Assembly (NCBI GenBank): GCA_947625905.1
Contig: CANQQJ010000007.1
Location: 18,714-82,713, forward strand
From: an uncultured Clostridia bacterium
GTDB taxonomy: Bacteria; Bacillota; Clostridia; Monoglobales; Monoglobaceae
Direction: 5' to 3'
DNA length: 64,000 nucleotides
Positions 4,164-62,933 of the stretch are shown here, one piece after another. The notes beneath the pieces were generated by a model. The model was not told where the DNA came from, searched no databases, and worked only from the letters and a program-made list of their open reading frames with translations. Position numbers and translations under genes: made by a program. Positions within the stretch are counted from its first letter, which is position 1; each line of letters starts with the position of its first letter.

Positions 4164-4176
4164 AAAAATACCTCCT

Positions 4177-4211
4177 AACGTAGTGATTAGTGATTAGTGA
4201 ATAGTGATTAG
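4177..4211 (+). repeat. Heptamer array AACG-(TAGYGAW)n, copy 1
   Basis: TAGTGAT TAGTGAT TAGTGAA TAGTGAT TAG; related copies at 32231, 32315, 36576 and 42976. Confidence 0.8.
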
Positions 4212-4212
4212 G

Positions 4213-4314
4213 ACGGGCGGCAGATTGCCGCCCCTACAGGTTTGGTGCAATTTGCACGGATCGCGGCAATCCAATATATCATCGTGCCTGTAGGGGCGGA
4301 TATTATCCGCCCGT
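4213..4314. repeat. Inverted pair of GTAG-type REP palindromes (REPIN-like)
   Basis: 4213-4238 reads TGTAGGGGCGGCAATCTGCCGCCCGT on minus; 4289-4314 reads TGTAGGGGCGGATATTATCCGCCCGT on plus. Confidence 0.8.
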
Positions 4315-9970: not shown

Positions 9971-11263
9971 TTATTCAAAAGCCTGCTCGAGGTCCGCTAT
10001 TATGTCGTCAACGCTTTCGGTTCCGATAGAGAGCCTGATCGTGTTGGGATTGATGCCCTGATCGAGCAGCTCCTCGGCGGTCAGCTGCGAGTGGGTGGTG
10101 CTGGCAGGATGTATAACCAGCGACTTGACGTCGGCCACATTGGCCAGCAGCGAGAATATCTGCAGTCTGTCGATAAAGTCGCGCGCATCCTTTTCGCCGC
10201 CGTCTATGTCGAACGTAAATATCGAGCCTCCGCCGTTCGGGAAATACTTTTTGTAAAGCTCGTGGTCGGGATGATCGGGCAGCGACGGATGATTGACCTT
10301 CAAAACCTTGGGATGATTGCTCAGATACTCAACGACCTTTTTGGTGTTTTCGGCGTGGCGCTCAACTCTGAGAGACAAAGTCTCAAGACCCTGGAGCAGC
10401 AGGAACGCGCTGAACGGCGCCAGCGTGGCTCCGGTGTCGCGGAGCAGTATGGCGCGTATCTTTGTCACAAACGCCGCCTCTCCGACGGCCTTTGTGAACG
10501 AAATGCCGTGGTAGCTGGGATTCGGCTCGGTCAGCGACGGGAACTTTCCGCTCGCTTCCCAGTCAAATTTTCCGCTGTCAACTATAACGCCGCCGAGCGT
10601 GGTGCCGTGGCCGCCTATAAACTTTGTGGCCGAATGGACAACTATGTCAGCGCCGTGCTCGATCGGGCGGATAAGATAAGGCGTGCCGAAGGTGTTGTCT
10701 ATAACCAGCGGTATCTTGTTTGCGTGCGCTATCTCGGCAACCGCGTCGATATCCGCGATATCGCTGTTGGGGTTGCCCAAAGTCTCGATAAATATCGCCT
10801 TTGTATTGGGCCTGATCGCGTTTTTAACTTCATCAAGATCATGTATGTTGACAAAAGTGGTGTCAACTCCGTACTGCGGCAGAGTGTGCGCCAGCAGGTT
10901 ATAGGTTCCGCCGTATATGGTCTTTTGCGAGACTATATGGTCGCCCGCCTGCGCCAGGTTCTGTATCGTGTAGGTGATGGCCGCAGCGCCCGATGCCGTG
11001 GCAAGCGCCGCGACTCCGCCCTCAAGCGCTGCGATCCTGCGCTCGAAAACGTCCTGCGTCGAGTTTGTCAGTCTGCCGTAGATATTGCCGGGATCGGCAA
11101 GTCCGAAGCGCGCCGCCGCGTGGTCCGAATTTTTGAAAACGTACGATGTGGTCTGATAGATCGGAACCGCTCTCGCGTCGCTGGCGGGATCGGGGCTTTC
11201 CTGTCCGATATGCAGCTGCTTTGTTTCAAATCCCCATTTTGATGTATCTTTTATATTTGCCAT
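9971..11263 (-). CDS. metY: O-acetylhomoserine aminocarboxypropyltransferase (sulfhydrylase)
   Basis: PIYQTTSY, IYGRLTN, HSATKFIGGHG PLP motif, LANVADVKSL, HPASTTH. Confidence 0.92.
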   Translation of the reverse strand: MANIKDTSKWGFETKQLHIGQESPDPASDARAVPIYQTTSYVFKNSDHAAARFGLADPGNIYGRLTNSTQDVFERRIAALEGGVAALATASGAAAITYTIQNLAQAGDHIVSQKTIYGGTYNLLAHTLPQYGVDTTFVNIHDLDEVKNAIRPNTKAIFIETLGNPNSDIADIDAVAEIAHANKIPLVIDNTFGTPYLIRPIEHGADIVVHSATKFIGGHGTTLGGVIVDSGKFDWEASGKFPSLTEPNPSYHGISFTKAVGEAAFVTKIRAILLRDTGATLAPFSAFLLLQGLETLSLRVERHAENTKKVVEYLSNHPKVLKVNHPSLPDHPDHELYKKYFPNGGGSIFTFDIDGGEKDARDFIDRLQIFSLLANVADVKSLVIHPASTTHSQLTAEELLDQGINPNTIRLSIGTESVDDIIADLEQAFE

Positions 11264-11330
11264 AATAATTATCTCCTTCTTAAATATATTTTATTTTAAT
11301 AAAAATTTTCAAACCGGCTTGCTCGCGGCC

Positions 11331-11399
11331 TCACATTCGCCCGAACCTCCAATTGAATCTGAGAAGCTTTGTAAACAGTCTCACATATTCTTGTATCAT
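11331..11399 (-). CDS. Candidate 22-aa leader or small protein MIQEYVRLFTKLLRFNWRFGRM
   Basis: AAGGAGAAAACC-ATG strong RBS; lies between the promoter/operator and metY. Confidence 0.5.
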   Translation of the reverse strand: MIQEYVRLFTKLLRFNWRFGRM

Positions 11400-11419
11400 G
11401 GTTTTCTCCTTTTGTCACT

Positions 11420-11474
11420 ATTCCTATAGATTTAGTATGTTTTAGATAATAGCACATAATAATATGTTTGTCAA
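11420..11474 (-). promoter_or_regulatory. metY promoter (TTGACA-17-TATTAT) with a CymR-like box over the start site
   Basis: -35 at 11474-11469; TG-extended -10 at 11451-11446; box AAAACATACTAAATCTATAGGAAT at 11443-11420. Confidence 0.7.
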
Positions 11475-11594
11475 GGACTTTTTTTAAATTTTTTTATTTT
11501 TTTTTGCAAAAAATTGGCGATAAGCCCTTGAATCCTATAAATCCTATGGTATAATAGTATATTAGTAGATAAATTTTTGATAGGGGTGATATAA

Positions 11595-12032
11595 TTGAAG
11601 ATTTCAACAAAAGGCAGATACGCGGTCAGGATGCTCCTGGATATGGCAGAGCACACAGACGACGGATTTATTTCACTTAAGGACATAGCGGAGCGCCAGG
11701 GGATTTCAAAAAAATATCTGGAGCAAATCATATCCCTATTCAACAACACGGGAATTCTGCGCTCGAGCAGAGGCTTTAAGGGCGGATACAAGCTGTCGAG
11801 GCAGCCTTCCGAATACACCGTCGGTGAGATACTCAGGATAACCGAGGGCAGCATTGCCCCGATCGCCTGCCTTGATCAAAAGCCCAATCAATGCGAGAGG
11901 CAGGCCTCGTGCAAGACTTTGTTCGTCTGGGAGGGGCTGAGAGACGTGATCGCCGAGTATCTGGACGGTATAACCATTCAGGACATCATTGACCGAAGCC
12001 GCGAATACTCCGGCCACGATTATGTGATATGA
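11595..12032 (+). CDS. Rrf2-family transcriptional regulator (three-Cys type)
   Basis: MKISTKGRYAVR, SKKYLEQI, RGFKGGY, C-x7-C-x5-C; TTG start; divergent from metY. Confidence 0.92.
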   Translation: MKISTKGRYAVRMLLDMAEHTDDGFISLKDIAERQGISKKYLEQIISLFNNTGILRSSRGFKGGYKLSRQPSEYTVGEILRITEGSIAPIACLDQKPNQCERQASCKTLFVWEGLRDVIAEYLDGITIQDIIDRSREYSGHDYVI

Positions 12033-12061
12033 GCTGATATTATTCATATTCGATTATTTGT

Positions 12062-12089
12062 AACAAATTTTCATACCCGCCATAGAATA
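12062..12089 (+). promoter_or_regulatory. Possible mother-cell (SigK/SigE-type) promoter
   Basis: AACA, 15 nt, CATAGAATA upstream of the Cys-rich gene. Confidence 0.4.
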
Positions 12090-12133
12090 TATTGAAAGCG
12101 GCAAAGGCCGCGAAATATTCAGGAGGTTTGATT

Positions 12134-13069
12134 ATGAGTTATAAAAATACTTACGGCAGACAAAACGGCTGCGGCTGCGGCTGTGACTGTGACAACGACG
12201 CCAATGTTGACGCGGCGGGCATCGCCGAGGACTGCGCCGCGGAAGCGGCCGACACAGGCGAAAGGCGCCGCGAGGATTTCTCGGATCCCATATGCGTCAG
12301 CGCAAAGAAGATCTACGACTCGTGCAGAGAGAGAAACTGCGTCGCGGATTCGAGAGTGTTTTTCACCGCCGAGAACCAGCAGCTCATTGAGGACGCGATA
12401 AACGTTAAGCTCAAAAAGGCTGAGATCATCTGGGTGTATACCGATATCGAGCCTCTGCTCTATAACTCGGGCTACTACTCGATAGACATAAAATTCTTTA
12501 TCGACGTCACTCTCGAGGTGTTCACCTGTCTGGGCGCTCCCGAAGAGATACACGGCCTCACAACCTACGACAAGCGCATAATCCTCTATGGCAGCGAGGG
12601 CAGGACCAAGACGTTCACCTCGACCATGCAGCCCGGCGAGGAGATCGAGAGCGTCAGAAAGTCCACCAACATGCCAACCGTCACGGTCGAGGCTGTCGAT
12701 CCCATAGCTCTCGGCGCAAAGCTGGTTGACAAGGAGAACTCCTGCGGATGCTGCAGCGCCGCCGCTATACCCGAGAACATCTGCTCCTGCTACGGCGACG
12801 ATCTTGTGGTCGACGACGACGCAAGACAGGTGCAGGTAAGCTTCGGCTTGTTCACGATCGCCAGAATTGAGAGAGACGTCTCGCTGATGATCGACGCGGT
12901 CGACTTCTGCGTTCCCGAAAAGGTCTGCGCCGCGGCGGGCGACGACGATCCCTGCGATCTGTTCAACACTATCCGCTTCCCGCTTGACGAGTTCTTCCCG
13001 CCCGCGGGCGATAACACGACAGGCGATCCCTACTGTGAGGGCTCGGGCTGCGGCTGCGGCTGCAAATAA
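12134..13069 (+). CDS. Cysteine-rich acidic protein, probable spore coat/exosporium component
   Basis: Start MSYKNTY at 12134 after AGGAGG; GCGCGC tracts at both ends; KIYDSCRERNC core; CATA-N3-TA promoter element. Confidence 0.55.
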   Translation: MSYKNTYGRQNGCGCGCDCDNDANVDAAGIAEDCAAEAADTGERRREDFSDPICVSAKKIYDSCRERNCVADSRVFFTAENQQLIEDAINVKLKKAEIIWVYTDIEPLLYNSGYYSIDIKFFIDVTLEVFTCLGAPEEIHGLTTYDKRIILYGSEGRTKTFTSTMQPGEEIESVRKSTNMPTVTVEAVDPIALGAKLVDKENSCGCCSAAAIPENICSCYGDDLVVDDDARQVQVSFGLFTIARIERDVSLMIDAVDFCVPEKVCAAAGDDDPCDLFNTIRFPLDEFFPPAGDNTTGDPYCEGSGCGCGCK

Positions 13070-31682: not shown

Positions 31683-32381
31683 GTCGTCGCGTCTCCCTTC
31701 GTCGCAAATTTCTCCGCTTATCGTAAAATACGCAAGCGTATTTTACTCATCGCTACGAATTTGCTCCTCTTTCCCACAAAGCGCACTCCGTTGGCGCTTT
31801 GCGGGAGCCCTGTCTGCCTCGCCTCTTGGCTCGTTCCGACGCAAGCGTCGGAAGCTTCGCCCTTACCGGCGGCATTTATTTGTAGCAATAATTCCGTTTC
31901 ACTCCATTATTGCTCTTTATGTCCGGCGCTGCCGCGCCTCAATCGCATCTAAAACATGCCGCCGGCATGTTTATTAACGATGCTACTCCTCTTCCCAAAA
32001 ACGCAAGCGTTTTCGGGAGCCCTTTTGCACTCCGTTGGCGCTTTGCGGGAGCCCTGTTAACTCCTCTCAGTCAGCTCCGCTGACAGCATTAAGGAAGCTC
32101 TTGGTCAAAATTGCAAGCAATTTTGAAAGATAGCTTTGAACCCGCAAGCAAGCTTGCTGATTATCCCCAAGGGGCTGCCCGTTTGCCTCCTCCCGGGAGG
32201 AGGTGTCAGGCGCAGCCTGACGGAGGTGGGAACGTAGCGATTAGTGATTAGATAATAACGATCAGACCTATGAACGCGGGGATATGCAAACGTTTTTACC
32301 GAATTAACTCCGCGTATTCGCTATTCGCTATTCCCTAATTACTACGTTGGCGCAAGGGCTCTTGTCCCCTGCGCCCTTTTT
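31683..32381. repeat. 700-bp intergenic cluster of hairpins and nested repeat elements
   Basis: About ten inverted repeats, a 31-bp direct repeat (31783-31813 = 32027-32057), a BoxC-like element (32185-32230) and two inverted heptamer arrays (32231-32251, 32315-32348). Confidence 0.8.
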
Positions 32382-36563: not shown

Positions 36564-36575
36564 AAATTTGCTCCC

Positions 36576-36606
36576 AACGCAGCGATTAGTGATTATTAGC
36601 GAATAG
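36576..36606 (+). repeat. Degenerate heptamer array abutting the mutS2 RBS
   Basis: AACGCAGCGATTAGTGATTATTAGCGAATAG. Confidence 0.65.
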
Positions 36607-36715
36607 AAATTTCCGCTATACTGTTTTATATTATACTAAACGGAGGCGCCTTAGTCAACAACAATTTATCACGCGATCACTCGTCTCGTATATAATATAT
36701 CAAGGAGTTGAGTTT

Positions 36716-40899: not shown

Positions 40900-40981
40900 C
40901 CCACCTCCGTCTTTTCGCCTTCGGCGAAAATCCACCTCCTCCCGGGAGGAGGCATACGGGCGGATGATATCCGCCCCTACA
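40900..40981 (+). repeat. BoxC-like double hairpin fused to a GTAG-type REP
   Basis: CCCACCTCCGTC-TTTTCGCC-TTC-GGCGAAAA-TCCA-CCTCCTCCCGGGAGGAGGC (40900-40953), then the REP at 40956-40981. Confidence 0.8.
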
Positions 40982-42959: not shown

Positions 42960-42975
42960 TTAATTTTACCTCCTA

Positions 42976-43071
42976 TCGTAGTGATTAGTGATTAGTGAAT
43001 AGCGAATAGTATCCTCCCTCTCCCTCCTAAAGGAGGGAGAGGCTGACGGGCGGATAATATCCGCCCCTACA
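42976..43071 (+). repeat. Composite repeat: heptamer array + hairpin + GTAG-type REP
   Basis: Heptamers 42979-43010; CCTCTCCCTCCT-AA-AGGAGGGAGAGGC 43017-43043; REP 43046-43071, identical to the 4289-4314 copy. Confidence 0.82.
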
Positions 43072-57172: not shown

Positions 57173-59854
57173 TTACCACAATTTCAGTCTCTGCTCGGGC
57201 GGCACATACATGGGATCGTCTTCCGAGATATTATAAATTTGATAGAACTCATCCATCGACGCTATAACGGCGTCGACCCTGACGCTGCTCTCGGAGCGGA
57301 TATCGGGTATGAGGCGCGAGTCGGTGACAAAGTTCTCGGTTCCGAGCTTGGCGAGCGCTTCCGCCCACGCTTCCACGGCCTCTCTTTGACCGTCGGGGTC
57401 GTCTTTCAAGATATTCAAGACGCAGCGCAGACCCGCAAAGTCCGCCATATTTTCAGAGACGGCCTCCTCGCCGTTTTGCTCGACTCCCTCGGCAAGCGAG
57501 AATTTGTCGTAATACTCGATAAAATTCTCAACGCGCTTGCTGTATTCCTCAAGATCGCCGTCTGTCCACCAGCTTTTTGTATTGCCTTTTTCGTCATACT
57601 CGGCGCCCGTTATGTCAAACGCGTGGCTTATCTCGTGAGCCGCGAACGCGCCAACGGTGCCCAGGTTCCGCGCGCGGCTCGCGCTCGGGTCATACATTCC
57701 CTCCTGCAGCAATCCCGCGCACACAAATATGCTGTTAATGTCATAAATATACGCCGCGTCGGTCGTGTCGGGAGGTATCTGCGCCAGCACAGCCGAAAAG
57801 TCGTCCTCGTCGCACTCCCGCTTCACCGTGTTGAACGCGCCGCCGTTTATTCTCATGCTGTTGTTAAAATACGTGCCGCCTTCCTCGGGCGGAATGATCA
57901 CCGGATACGAGCCGTTTTCAAAGCGTCCGATAACGGCTTTCATGTTTTCGATTTTTTTGAGCGCGGTTTGTTTGGCTTGATCGCTCAGCCACGCGTTGGC
58001 ATTGATAATGCTTGAATACTCGCCGAGTATATCGCCGACCATGGCGCGCACGTCGTCTGCCGCGGAATCGTCGTAATAATAATCGCAGTAGATCGAGCCC
58101 AGGTCATTCGGCAGCAGCTGTCTGATAACATTGATATTCTTGTCGCTTAAAATCCCGCCGCCGATCTCGTCGTCTCCGCCGGTCATTTCACGGAATTTTG
58201 CGGTCATCTCGGTGATACTCCCGCGCGTCGGCGGTTCGTCACCCGACATAAACATCATGGCGGCGGTTTTGACGTTCTCAAGATTCTCGAACGCCGCGCC
58301 CTCCTCCGCGTTCAAATAGCATCCCGCGGCCGTCAGCGCGATAAGCGCGTTGATCTTGAGCGCGTTTAAATCATCATCGGTCAAAAGCGCGTCTATCTCC
58401 CCTGCGGTATCCTCGCTATGAGACATAACGACGTCGGTTTTTTCAAAACCGAGCACCTTCAAGGTCGAGGCGAGTTTTACATTCGACAGCAGCTCGTCCG
58501 CCGCCGTTTCGCTGTATTTTTGATAATTCGGCACATCAACGCTGTAATTTTCGAGATTTATGTTGTGCTCCGCCGCGACGGCGAACAGTTCATCGACAAT
58601 GTCTTCGACGTTGACCGACGGATCGACCATCATTCTGAGGCTCATTCCCATAATTATAAGCGACATGGGATTCTCGTCCCGGCTCGCCGCATCCTGAAGC
58701 TCAAGAGCTTTCTTGATGTCGGCCTCGGAAAACTCATATCCCATCGCCGAAAGAACCTCTTTCAGGGCGTCCTCATAAAACGAGCCGAACGCCTCTTTGG
58801 TCGACTGTCTGTAATTTATAACGCCCATATCGCCGACCGGGTTTATCAGCACGCAGGGCAGCGCGTCGCCGCTCTGAGGGTCTTTGACCGCCTCGATGTC
58901 AAACAGAGTCGCGGCTCCTATATTTCTCAGTATATCGGTCGACGCGTCCGCAAGCGCCTCGACTGTGTCGGCGTGCACTATGGTGTTTCTGAGGTCTGTG
59001 ATCAGCTGCTTGTCCTCCTCGGTGGGCTCGGCGGATCCCGCCATGCACAAGAGCATATCGTGGACGCGCTGCTCGGCGCTTCCGCGCTCGTACTCAAGGC
59101 CGCCGTTCATAAGCTTTTGAAGCAGGTCTCTTTCTTTCTCGTTTATTCCCGCCTGCATGTCTCCTAAATTGGACCACGCGTTTTCGGTGTCGATAATACC
59201 GCCGTGCATGACGTCGATCGCGCTGACGGAAGATACCTGCGCGTTGCGGAACGCCTTGCTGTTCACGTGGCCGTAGAAGCTCTCGCCTATCGGCACGGTG
59301 TTCAAAAGCTCGTCGCTCCTGTCGGTCAAAAGCTTCACCTGCTCGACGGTTATGTTGTCGTCCGAGCCCAGAAGGCCGTTGCCGTAGCCCTTGACGATAC
59401 CCGCCCGCGTCAGAGCGTCTATGTCCTCTTTCGCCCAGTCGGGAACATCCGTAAACTCGATAGGCTCGCCGCCGCTTCCCGAGTTCTTCGGCATGCATCT
59501 CGCCAATATCGCCAGCGCCTCAACGCGCGTGATATTATCTTTCGGGCGCAGCGTGCCGTCATCGTAGCCGCGGATCAGGCCGTTTGAAACCGCCTTCTCA
59601 AAATCCGCCGCGTACTTTGGGGCTATATCCGCGCTGTCGGCAAAATCCGAAAGCGCGTCCGCGGCGCCGCGTAAATTGTTGCGGCCGACCGAGCGCACAA
59701 ACTCCGACACGACATACTCGCGCGCGGCAAACGCTCCGCTCTCCGCCGCGAAAGACGGGGCGGAGAGCGGGATAACTGAAACGATCATTGCCGCAGATGT
59801 CAAAATGCCTATAATTTTTTTGCTTAGTCTTATTCGGCTAATTTTTTTGGTCAA
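57173..59854 (-). CDS. SLH-anchored M13-family metallopeptidase (intact copy)
   Basis: TTG start, signal peptide; SLH motifs (GLIRGYDDGTLRP, ITRVEA, GIVKGYGNG); AHEISH and ENMAD. Confidence 0.88.
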   Translation of the reverse strand: MTKKISRIRLSKKIIGILTSAAMIVSVIPLSAPSFAAESGAFAAREYVVSEFVRSVGRNNLRGAADALSDFADSADIAPKYAADFEKAVSNGLIRGYDDGTLRPKDNITRVEALAILARCMPKNSGSGGEPIEFTDVPDWAKEDIDALTRAGIVKGYGNGLLGSDDNITVEQVKLLTDRSDELLNTVPIGESFYGHVNSKAFRNAQVSSVSAIDVMHGGIIDTENAWSNLGDMQAGINEKERDLLQKLMNGGLEYERGSAEQRVHDMLLCMAGSAEPTEEDKQLITDLRNTIVHADTVEALADASTDILRNIGAATLFDIEAVKDPQSGDALPCVLINPVGDMGVINYRQSTKEAFGSFYEDALKEVLSAMGYEFSEADIKKALELQDAASRDENPMSLIIMGMSLRMMVDPSVNVEDIVDELFAVAAEHNINLENYSVDVPNYQKYSETAADELLSNVKLASTLKVLGFEKTDVVMSHSEDTAGEIDALLTDDDLNALKINALIALTAAGCYLNAEEGAAFENLENVKTAAMMFMSGDEPPTRGSITEMTAKFREMTGGDDEIGGGILSDKNINVIRQLLPNDLGSIYCDYYYDDSAADDVRAMVGDILGEYSSIINANAWLSDQAKQTALKKIENMKAVIGRFENGSYPVIIPPEEGGTYFNNSMRINGGAFNTVKRECDEDDFSAVLAQIPPDTTDAAYIYDINSIFVCAGLLQEGMYDPSASRARNLGTVGAFAAHEISHAFDITGAEYDEKGNTKSWWTDGDLEEYSKRVENFIEYYDKFSLAEGVEQNGEEAVSENMADFAGLRCVLNILKDDPDGQREAVEAWAEALAKLGTENFVTDSRLIPDIRSESSVRVDAVIASMDEFYQIYNISEDDPMYVPPEQRLKLW

Positions 59855-59889: not shown

Positions 59890-62628
59890 TTACCAAAGAT
59901 CCAGTCTGTTTTCGGGAGCAACATACATCTTGTCGCCCTCTTTTACGTCGTACAGCTCATAGAACTCGTCCATCGACGCAACGACCGCGTCAACTCTTAC
60001 ATTGTTTGACGAGTGCACGTCCGCCGCCAAAATGTTCATTTTTGTCGACTCGCTTCCGAGCTCGGCCCATAACGCGGCGTATGATTCCAGAGCTTTCTTC
60101 TGCGCCTCGGGGTCGCCCTCGAGAATATTCAAAATACAGCGCAGACCCGCGTAGTCGGCCATATTCTCACCGATCGTTTTCTCGCTGTCCTGCGGCACGC
60201 CCTGCAGGACCTCAAAATTCCGATAATATTCCACAAAATTATCAATGCGCTTTTGATATTCTGCTTGATCCTTTTCGGTCCACCAATTATTAAGACAGTC
60301 GTTCTCGTCATACTGCGAGCCGAGCGAGTCAAACGCGTGGCCGATCTCATGACCGATCACGGCGCCGATCGCTCCGAGGTTTTCCGCTCTGTCAGCCTCG
60401 GGATCGTAGATCGGCTTGTTCAGTATTGCCGCCATAACGCACATTATATTGAGCTGAGGCGCGTAGAACGCGTTGACCATATCGGGCGGCGCCAGCATCT
60501 GCTCTCTGAGGAATTCTTTTTCGCTGCACTGGCGGACTTTTGTGTTGAGCATATCTTTAAGGACGCTCACCGTGTTCGAAAATACTGTTCCGCCCTGTTC
60601 CGGAGATGTGATCGTCGGGAACTCATAATTGTCGGGGTAACCGATCACCGCGATCATATTCGCTAACTTTTTGATAGCGTTCTGCTTGGTCTCCTCGCTC
60701 ATCCACGGATTCTTTTCAAAAGTCTCGACATACTCGCCCCATATCTCATCCAGCATTTCGGCTACATCATACGAGATCTGATCGTCGTAGTAATAGTCGC
60801 AGTAGATAAGGCCGATGTCGTTGGGCAGGTATGATCTTATCAATCCCAGATTCTCCGCGCTGAGCACGCTTTCTTCATCCTGATCGGCGCCTCCGCTCTG
60901 CGCGGCGTATACTGCCGCCGTGCCCAAAAAAGCCTCCGCCATTTCTTCGAGCAAACTCGTGTCGGTATCGGACGAGATGTACAGATACGCCATATACGTC
61001 ACAATGTTGATCTGTTTCATCGCGTCGCTCTCCCGGTCATTCAGAGGCGCGTTAAAGTCAGACAGGCCGAACAGCGCGTTTACCTTAAGAGCGTTAAGGT
61101 TATCCGCGGTAAAAGCTTTGTCGATCTCGCTCAATGTATCTTCGCTGTTAACAGCCACATTGTCATAATTCTTAAATCCTATTTTGTTTAATATATCGCG
61201 GAAATCAATATTTTTCGCCGCATTCTCGGCCTCGGCCGCGGAGAGGATGCGAGAATCTTCCTTATCGGATTCCAAGGTTTCGGGGTCAAGATCGGGGTGC
61301 TCGCTCAGCATGGCCTCGGTATCCTTGTTTATTGTCTCTTGAGTTATTTTCTGATCGGAGTACATTCTTATAGTCATGCCCTGCAAGATATCAGCGGCAT
61401 AGTTTTTGTCCCGCGTCGCCAGCGCCTGGAGGTCAACGGCGCGTTTTATGTCATCATCCGAAAACTCGCCGCCCATTGACTTAACAACGTCTTTAACCGT
61501 ATTTAAATAACGTTCGCCAAGCAGCTCCTTTGTCGCCGACCTGAAATTTATCAATCCTATTGATGTGTATTTCTTCAGGGTGATCTCGGGAAGAGCAATG
61601 CCGGTTTCCGGGTCTTGGGCTACATCGACCGAGAACAAAACATTTATTCCGGTCTCTGTCGCGATCTCGGTCGCCGTGTTCACAAGCTCCTCGACCGATT
61701 GCGCGTTTAAGATCTTCTGCCTCCAGTTCTGCACAAGAGCTTTGTCGCTTTCGGTGATCGTCTTTGAATCCTGCAGGCAGAGCAGCATGTCGTGAACTCT
61801 CTGTTCGGCGCTTCCGGGGCTGTACTCGAGCTCTCCGTTCATGAGCTTTTTAAGCAGATCGTTTTCCTGATCGTATATCTGCAGCTGAATATCGCTGAAA
61901 TAAGACCAGGAGTCGGAGGTACAACAACAGCGCCGTGAGCGGCATCGATAACGGGCGCGTTCGACAGCTGAACGTTGCGGAACGTCTTGTTGTTGATGTG
62001 TCCGTAAAAGCTCTCGCCGACGGGCACGGTGTTCAAAAGCTCGTCGCTTCTGTCGGTCAGAAGGCCGACCTGCTCTACCGTTATGTTATCGTCCGAGCCC
62101 AGAAGGCCGTTGCCGTAACCCTTGACGATGCCCGCGCGGGTCAGATCGTCGATATTCTCTTTCGCCCAATCGGGAACATCCATAAACTCGATAGGCTCAC
62201 CCGCATCATCGGGCACCTCGGGAATACATCTCGCCAGCATTGCCAGCGCCTCGATGCGTGTCACGTTTTCTTTGGGACGCAGCGTCTTGTCCTCATAGCC
62301 GCGCACCAGGCCGTTTGAGACCGCCTTTTCAAAATCGCCCACATAGTCCTCGTCAATATCGTCTTTGTCGGCGAATGTCGAGAGTATGTACGCGCTGCCC
62401 GTGAAATTGCTGCGGCCGACCGACTGCACGAATTCCGAAACCACATATTCGCGCGTCGCGAGCTCGGTGCCCTGCAATATTTCGGATACCACTGGCGGCG
62501 TCATCAGCCACATATTCGCGCGTCGCGAGCTCGGTGCCCTCCTCGGCAAAAGCCGGAACGGAAATCAGCGGCACGGTTGAAACGAGCATGGCCGCCGCCG
62601 TTAAAATACCGATAAGTTTTCTTCTCAT
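59890..62628 (-). pseudogene. Second SLH-M13 peptidase gene split into three ORFs (62353..62628, 61839..62549, 59890..61842)
   Basis: Colinear with the intact paralog; 67-bp insertion at 62441-62540 and an apparent 1-bp deletion near 61915-61920; catalytic GHEIGH and ENMAD retained. Confidence 0.8.
62441..62540. repeat. 33-bp exact direct repeat flanking a 34-bp insert
   Basis: CCACATATTCGCGCGTCGCGAGCTCGGTGCCCT at 62441-62473 and 62508-62540. Confidence 0.9.
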
Positions 62629-62933
62629 TTTGCTTACCTCCGCATTAAAAATTTTTTTGTATTATATATTTTACCACATATTACAAAAAAATCAAATACT
62701 TTTCACGCAAAAAACAGGGGGGTTTCGTGCAATAACGCCAAAAAATTATTATTTACGGCTCGAATGACGTTCCCGCCGACGCGCCTAAAATACATATAAA
62801 TTTAATTCGGTATTTTCGCGCAACTTAGTAAAAATTTATTATTGCATATTTTGAAGAAATATGGTATAGTAAAAAGAACGATTGTGTAAAAATCCAAGGC
62901 AGAAAATATAATATGATTTATGAGGTGATTAAT

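Follow-up and report, generated by a model that had tools for sequence, protein, structure and literature searches.

We tentatively favour a model whereby a 67-bp structure inside a cell-wall-anchored M13 peptidase gene of an uncultured gut commensal arose by natural, gene-disrupting, off-target spacer integration through Cas1-Cas2, the adaptation complex of CRISPR systems, which are named after clustered and regularly interspaced short palindromic repeats. This reading may well be right, yet it stops short of what we would call probable. The structure lies in a 64,000-nt stretch of contig CANQQJ010000007.1 (positions 18,714 to 82,713; hereafter the window) from an uncultured Monoglobus sp. 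of the rabbit gut, where an exact 33-bp duplication brackets a 34-bp insert within gene B, the disrupted member of a tandem pair of genes that also includes the intact gene A.

Results

An exact 33-bp duplication around a 34-bp insert

On the plus strand, the flank ...CCGAAA is followed by the first repeat copy, R1 (CCACATATTCGCGCGTCGCGAGCTCGGTGCCCT), the insert (GCAATATTTCGGATACCACTGGCGGCGTCATCAG) and the second copy, R2 (the same 33-mer), after which the sequence continues with CCTCGG.... The elements are:

62441..62473, R1, the first of two identical 33-bp copies, in gene sense AGGGCACCGAGCTCGCGACGCGCGAATATGTGG, encoding GTELATREYV
62474..62507, the 34-bp insert, in gene sense CTGATGACGCCGCCAGTGGTATCCGAAATATTGC, with a host-like GC content of 53%
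62508..62540, R2, the second of these 33-bp copies

An earlier note on this DNA had described an exact 33-bp duplication, encoding GTELATREYV, around a 34-bp insert, and the window bears this out: the 33-mer is present in exactly two copies that are 100% identical, a third copy is absent even at 3 mismatches, and two copies were obtained in 0 of 100 shuffles. The 34-nt insert occurs a single time with 3 mismatches allowed. The bases before R1 and R2 differ (a at 62440, g at 62507), as do the bases after them (g at 62474, c at 62541), and therefore the duplication is exactly 33 bp long with unambiguous borders. Repeat and insert add up to a period of 67, and both lengths fall inside the usual ranges of CRISPR repeats and spacers. 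A perfect duplication with exact borders around foreign DNA is the hallmark of staggered strand transfer with subsequent gap repair, i.e. of integrase or transposase chemistry. A stagger of 33 nt is far beyond that of ordinary transposases and, to our knowledge, no well-characterised bacterial enzyme other than Cas1-Cas2 both measures a stagger of ~30 nt and inserts a ~34-bp fragment. Type I-C systems are common in Clostridia and have spacers of 33–36 bp. The period of 33 + 34 nt comes closest to this type, of which the B. halodurans repeat is 32 bp long (PMC6519985).

An ordinary transposon insertion or footprint was rejected because the duplication is 33 bp rather than 2–15 bp and the insert is too small and lacks inverted-repeat ends; the remnant of an attachment (att) site was rejected on anatomy. 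Transposases of the IS1634 family exemplify enzymes that make unusually long target duplications; apart from Cas1-Cas2, we know of no further enzyme class for which target duplications span tens of bp. That the structure is the footprint of such a mobile element, nearly all of which was subsequently lost, is nonetheless highly improbable: the sequence of the 34-bp remnant shows no terminal inverted-repeat symmetry, no related element is found in the window, and a near-total internal deletion sparing both copies of the duplication would be an unlikely second event.

Geometry by itself does not name the enzyme. The main rival is a duplication-insertion made independently of CRISPR, for which we consider two variants. 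In a break-repair variant, a staggered double-strand break with nicks ~33 nt apart would have been filled in and ligated around a stray fragment; in a template-switch variant, a replication switch akin to fork stalling and template switching or microhomology-mediated break-induced replication (FoSTeS/MMBIR) would have copied 34 nt ectopically, resumed 33 nt upstream and re-copied the repeat. The host-like GC content of the insert would fit such an origin, as would relaxed selection on gene B, under which any lesion would persist; moreover, our search for a template covered 64 kb of the genome only. Nevertheless, we regard this explanation as unlikely, if worth keeping in mind. Microhomology is zero, in that neither end of the insert shares a single base with the flank needed for pairing, and at the return junction this holds on both strands (...TTGC and ...ATCAG versus pre-repeat ...GAGG and ...CGAAA). 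Switches of the FoSTeS/MMBIR type normally use 2 or more nt of microhomology, and its absence at the junctions therefore argues against them; exact borders combined with zero microhomology are expected of staggered cleavage and fill-in by an integrase and not of microhomology-mediated switching. No template was found in the window or among the related loci. We know of no bacterial pathway that yields the specific 33 + 34 geometry, and its match to CRISPR lengths would have to be a coincidence.

The insertion is present in read-derived unitigs

The locus is present in rabbit-gut metagenome runs. Among Logan unitigs (k = 31, k-mers seen at least twice), one from run X3 covers 62449..62677 without a difference, taking in the insert in full together with 25 nt of R1, R2 and the flank, while one from run X1 covers 62489..62679. 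Read-derived sequence thus supports the insertion, a point that the earlier note had proposed to check by mapping raw reads. A unitig from X4, which belongs to an independent study, equals the window over 62250..62473 and stops at precisely the final base of R1, which suggests a fork of the sequence graph at the repeat. The insertion is real and not an assembly artefact, because the insert is novel sequence and not something that an assembler can invent.

What could still speak for an artefact of assembly or library is that depth is only ~3x per run, that no single unitig spans the complete structure from the left flank through R1, insert and R2 to the right flank, and that insertion-specific 31-mers occur in just one indexed public run, X3; the other public runs contain only a strain that is ~92% identical, as in X9 and X10 over the SLH region (window 62200-62447), or nothing at the site. 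Set against this, the unitigs of two runs of the sample hold the insert together with R2 and the flank, one of them with most of R1 as well, and the 33-nt repeat is shorter than the larger k-mers that metagenome assemblers typically use, which exceed 33 nt. We therefore consider an artefact very improbable.

The insertion disrupts a dispensable peptidase gene and is absent from relatives

The insertion site is located 88 nt into gene B, which runs on the minus strand from 62628 to 59890. The relevant features are:

59890..62628, minus strand, gene B, a pseudogene for a protein with signal peptide, SLH domain and M13 (PepO/neprilysin-type) peptidase, split into three open reading frames (ORFs) by two frameshifts
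62353..62628, minus strand, shortened 91-aa product, the reading of which begins at the true start codon and runs on through R1 and the insert
61839..62549, minus strand, ORF that lies downstream of the insert and keeps the original SLH frame, lacking the signal peptide; the gene-caller version is P0001 (MWLMTPPVVSEILQGTEL...)
61921..61922, minus strand, the second lesion in gene B, independent of the first, where 1 nt is deleted compared with gene A and L001 (GTTGTTG-TACC)
57173..59854, minus strand, gene A, intact tandem paralog of 893 aa with SLH domain and M13 peptidase, carrying the empty site

By Pfam, gene B contains SLH, Peptidase_M13_N and Peptidase_M13 domains; it is the upstream member of the pair, and its architecture is common to both genes. 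As the earlier note had proposed, the net gain of 67 bp shifts the frame: reading from the ATG at 62628 yields no more than 91 aa, and the reading frame of the SLH region is restored once one repeat copy and the insert are taken out. The 1-nt deletion, which is seen when gene B is aligned with gene A and L001 and shows also in the repeat offsets (2731 vs 2732), lies ~550 nt further down the gene, and the region around it is reproduced gap-free by unitigs of two samples (X3, 61732..61937; X4, 61852..62072). Deletion and insertion together return to the frame of the start codon, yet there are stops in that frame within the ~550 nt between them. With two lesions, gene B is therefore a pseudogene that has taken at least two hits.

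We compared the site in gene A and in orthologs from four related Monoglobus species (L003, L004, L005 and L006, the last being the same as L001). Gene A and all four orthologs align straight across the site, leaving a clean 67-nt gap. The empty allele that the earlier note had proposed to look for is thus present in gene A and in four related species, and the 67 nt therefore represent a derived, lineage-specific insertion that arose in one event. Simple slippage giving a tandem duplication was rejected, since none of the empty alleles contains the 34-nt part, and this part aligns in register to neither flank.

The ortholog of gene B is intact (891 aa) in L003 and L004, at 9989-12664 in both, and broken into three pieces in L005 (4276-6953) and into at least four in L006 (347-2056); the ortholog of gene A is still intact in L004 and L005. 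The gene B paralog decays repeatedly across the genus, and a frameshifting insertion could therefore persist in it. With a second frameshift in the gene itself and orthologs that are independently broken in L005 and L006, gene B is dispensable.

The origin of the 34-bp insert

No source of the insert was found by local BLAST in the window or in 8 related loci. The earlier note had suggested searching for the 34-mer more widely, and nothing beyond chance emerged: the exact 34-mer was not found in the IMG/VR viral, JGI metagenome or GTDB representative-genome collections, its central 24-mer had no match in JGI metagenomes, three wobble-masked versions covering all three frames and three overlapping 20-mers had no match in the viral collection, and BLAST against phages and plasmids returned chance-level matches only (E about 3-4). 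The insert is foreign, or in any case unplaced.

The earlier note had also cautioned that, in its 3' part, the insert is similar to the sequence at the end of the repeat, which would favour template switching or recombination with a paralog. The likeness is there: the 3' part matches the codons just after R2 at 16/21 nt and in the same frame (VVSEILQ vs VVSEFVQ), with differences that are partly synonymous. Its significance is marginal, however, because an equal or better same-strand DNA match within +/-100 nt is found for ~6% of random genomic 34-mers placed in the same context (p ~0.06), and an equal match at the protein level for ~4% (p ~0.04). The 5' half of the insert aligns to nothing in the downstream codons.

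In principle, the insert could be a fragment of a diverged family paralog or ortholog (encoding ...LMTPPVVSEILQ) that arrived through recombination, either illegitimate or homeologous, or through gene conversion, and the in-frame match with its partly synonymous differences and simulated p values is what such an origin has in its favour. Besides being marginal, this comparison was picked after the fact. In a census of 163 family members (17 word-index matches plus the best 150 of 23,838 exhaustive HMMER matches), the motif [AT]REY.[VI]SEFVQSVG is strongly conserved, whereas VVSEI, SEILQ and TPPVV are carried by none of the 163. The insert is absent from the tandem paralog and from the genes of the four relatives, the wobble-masked search in the frame concerned gave no match in the viral collection, and recombination would leave the perfect 33-bp duplication unexplained. 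A paralog origin is thereby weakened to the point where we consider it unsupported and improbable.

Off-target integration by Cas1-Cas2 as the best available explanation

In the model that we favour, the Cas1-Cas2 adaptation complex of the Monoglobus lineage would have joined one prespacer-sized 34-bp fragment to the chromosome outside any array. Two strand transfers on opposite strands would have occurred 33 bp apart, which would be the spacing that the integrase normally measures across one repeat, and gap filling would then have left a copy of these 33 coding bp on either side of the insert. The outcome would be a single repeat-spacer-repeat unit and a shifted frame in the cell-wall-anchored M13 peptidase gene. 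The event would have been tolerated because an intact tandem paralog exists and the gene B copy decays repeatedly in the genus. We infer the enzyme, the origin of the insert and a match of 33/34 nt to the repeat and spacer lengths of the host. On anatomy and by exclusion, and on these grounds only, off-target integration is the best available explanation, and it is partly supported: the one-spacer neo-array proposed in the earlier note agrees with the geometry, the empty site and the reads, whereas no cas gene or array was found in the window and no protospacer in the collections searched. Nothing relevant on CRISPR in Monoglobus was found among the papers searched.

Several observations weigh against integration by Cas1-Cas2. 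The first concern the target. The earlier note had drawn attention to palindromes in the duplicated site, and both TCGCGA and CGAGCTCG are indeed present in the repeat; statistically, they are unremarkable. The longest palindrome in the 33-mer is 8 nt, and 11% of window 33-mers contain a perfect palindrome of equal length. Likewise, its DNA hairpin energy of -5.4 kcal/mol is matched by 11% of all window 33-mers and by 26% of GC-matched ones. The 33-mer is therefore ordinary in structure and in palindrome content, and it matches no Rfam family, CRISPR-DR models included, even at E<=10. An AT-rich promoter region starts ~90 nt from the site. By a generic comparison of this kind, made against curated repeat families, the target does not stand out as repeat-like or as a palindromic or cruciform site next to AT-rich DNA.

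The remaining points concern the host, the insert and the sampling. None of the 53 ORFs of the window is a cas gene by PADLOC, there is no CRISPR array in the window or in the 8 related loci, and the host may lack a matching CRISPR system, or any. No protospacer, and with it no protospacer-adjacent motif (PAM), was found in the collections searched. The weak in-frame likeness of VVSEILQ to VVSEFVQ (p ~0.04-0.06) is not predicted by integration of a random spacer. Finally, the case comprises one event only, which was observed in one sample at a depth of ~3x.

That the structure is a canonical CRISPR array was rejected: there are two copies only, the repeat codes for a conserved part of a protein, and no cas genes are nearby. 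Separately, in L004 a 33-nt unit is repeated 7.3 times head to tail with 93% matches (1382-1623) inside a 643-aa ORF. This is the only CRISPR-like signal in the window and the related loci, and it was rejected as an array, being a tandem repeat in a coding linker.

Other features of the window

Between two minus-strand genes, an intergenic region of ~700 nt (31683-32381) is packed with perfect hairpins, at least four of which share a CAAG loop on the plus strand (CUUG on the minus strand), and contains a 31-nt perfect direct repeat at 31783 and 32027. Its minimum free energy z-score is -9 to -10 on either strand, and it has no Rfam match even at E<=1; it may be a structured RNA that has yet to be described, or else clustered palindromic elements. 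Heptad-like repeats, ACGTAG(T/C)GATTAGTGATTAG, make up an element that is dispersed over intergenic positions (4169-4238, 42967-43071, 32223-32265, 36568-36610 and 40949-40981) and in some copies is followed by a GC-rich hairpin, GGGCGG-N6-CCGCCC. The sole Rfam family in the window at the gathering threshold is the flavin mononucleotide (FMN) riboswitch RF00050 (7341-7457, minus strand, 112.5 bits). PADLOC models matched a few of the 53 ORFs, namely mads (mad3/6/8), PD-T4-6 / Stk2-type kinase and MkoA, and these matches may reflect generic domain homology rather than defence systems.

Discussion

Off-target spacer integration has so far been seen mainly upon over-expression in E. coli and in vitro, and natural examples are few and circumstantial. 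If our reading is correct, the structure in gene B would stem from natural Cas1-Cas2 activity at wild-type level and would provide direct evidence from a genome that, in nature, CRISPR adaptation comes at a mutagenic cost, with the CRISPR integrase as a real source of insertional mutation and repeat-spacer-repeat units seeded from ordinary coding sequence. It would illustrate the first step in the de novo birth of an array, and, as a natural substrate, it would allow one to study why a site outside CRISPR loci is open to attack. It would nonetheless be another natural instance of a known phenomenon and not a new kind of system. Should the host turn out to be without a matching system, the structure would instead document an unexplained class of bacterial mutation that combines duplication with filler. 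In both cases, little changes for the organism in practical terms, because gene B is a redundant, decaying paralog.

Among mutational processes that do not involve an integrase, FoSTeS/MMBIR and internal tandem duplications with filler resemble the structure described here in that a duplication is accompanied by a short, non-local insertion at the junction. Such events typically have microhomology at the junction and a templated filler, neither of which is seen here. The structure shares its ~67-nt period and the lengths of its repeat and spacer with a canonical array of type I-C, which has a 32-bp repeat (PMC6519985). Unlike such an array, it has two repeats that consist of ordinary coding sequence conserved in relatives, and it has no leader, no adjacent cas genes and no match to a repeat family.

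Closer parallels come from integrases acting outside arrays. In vitro, Cas1-Cas2 of P. furiosus integrates off-target at sites on plasmids that have features in common with repeats (PMC6698737). In these reactions, as in the event proposed here, attack occurs at two sites that lie on opposite strands, a fixed, repeat-like distance apart and outside an array; the P. furiosus sites share motifs with the cognate repeat, whereas the 33-mer in gene B matches no curated repeat family.

The type I-E system of E. coli, with lengths of 28/33 nt, provides the nearest comparison. There, off-target integration with duplication of a repeat-length target is established in vivo (Nivala et al. 2018, as recounted in PMC7054753, PMC11788318 and bioRxiv 10.1101/148544), and according to texts that cite this work, Nivala, Shipman & Church 2018 (Nat Microbiol) also presented circumstantial natural cases in two other species. 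Our case differs in being a natural event in an uncultured Clostridia gut commensal, in which a coding gene is broken, the lengths are 33/34 nt, and the integrase and the insert source are putative. As far as these accounts describe them, the neo-CRISPR units formed in E. coli upon over-expression of Cas1-Cas2 nevertheless have the same build as the structure in gene B: a repeat-length chromosomal sequence is doubled around a spacer-length insert, and genes can be hit.

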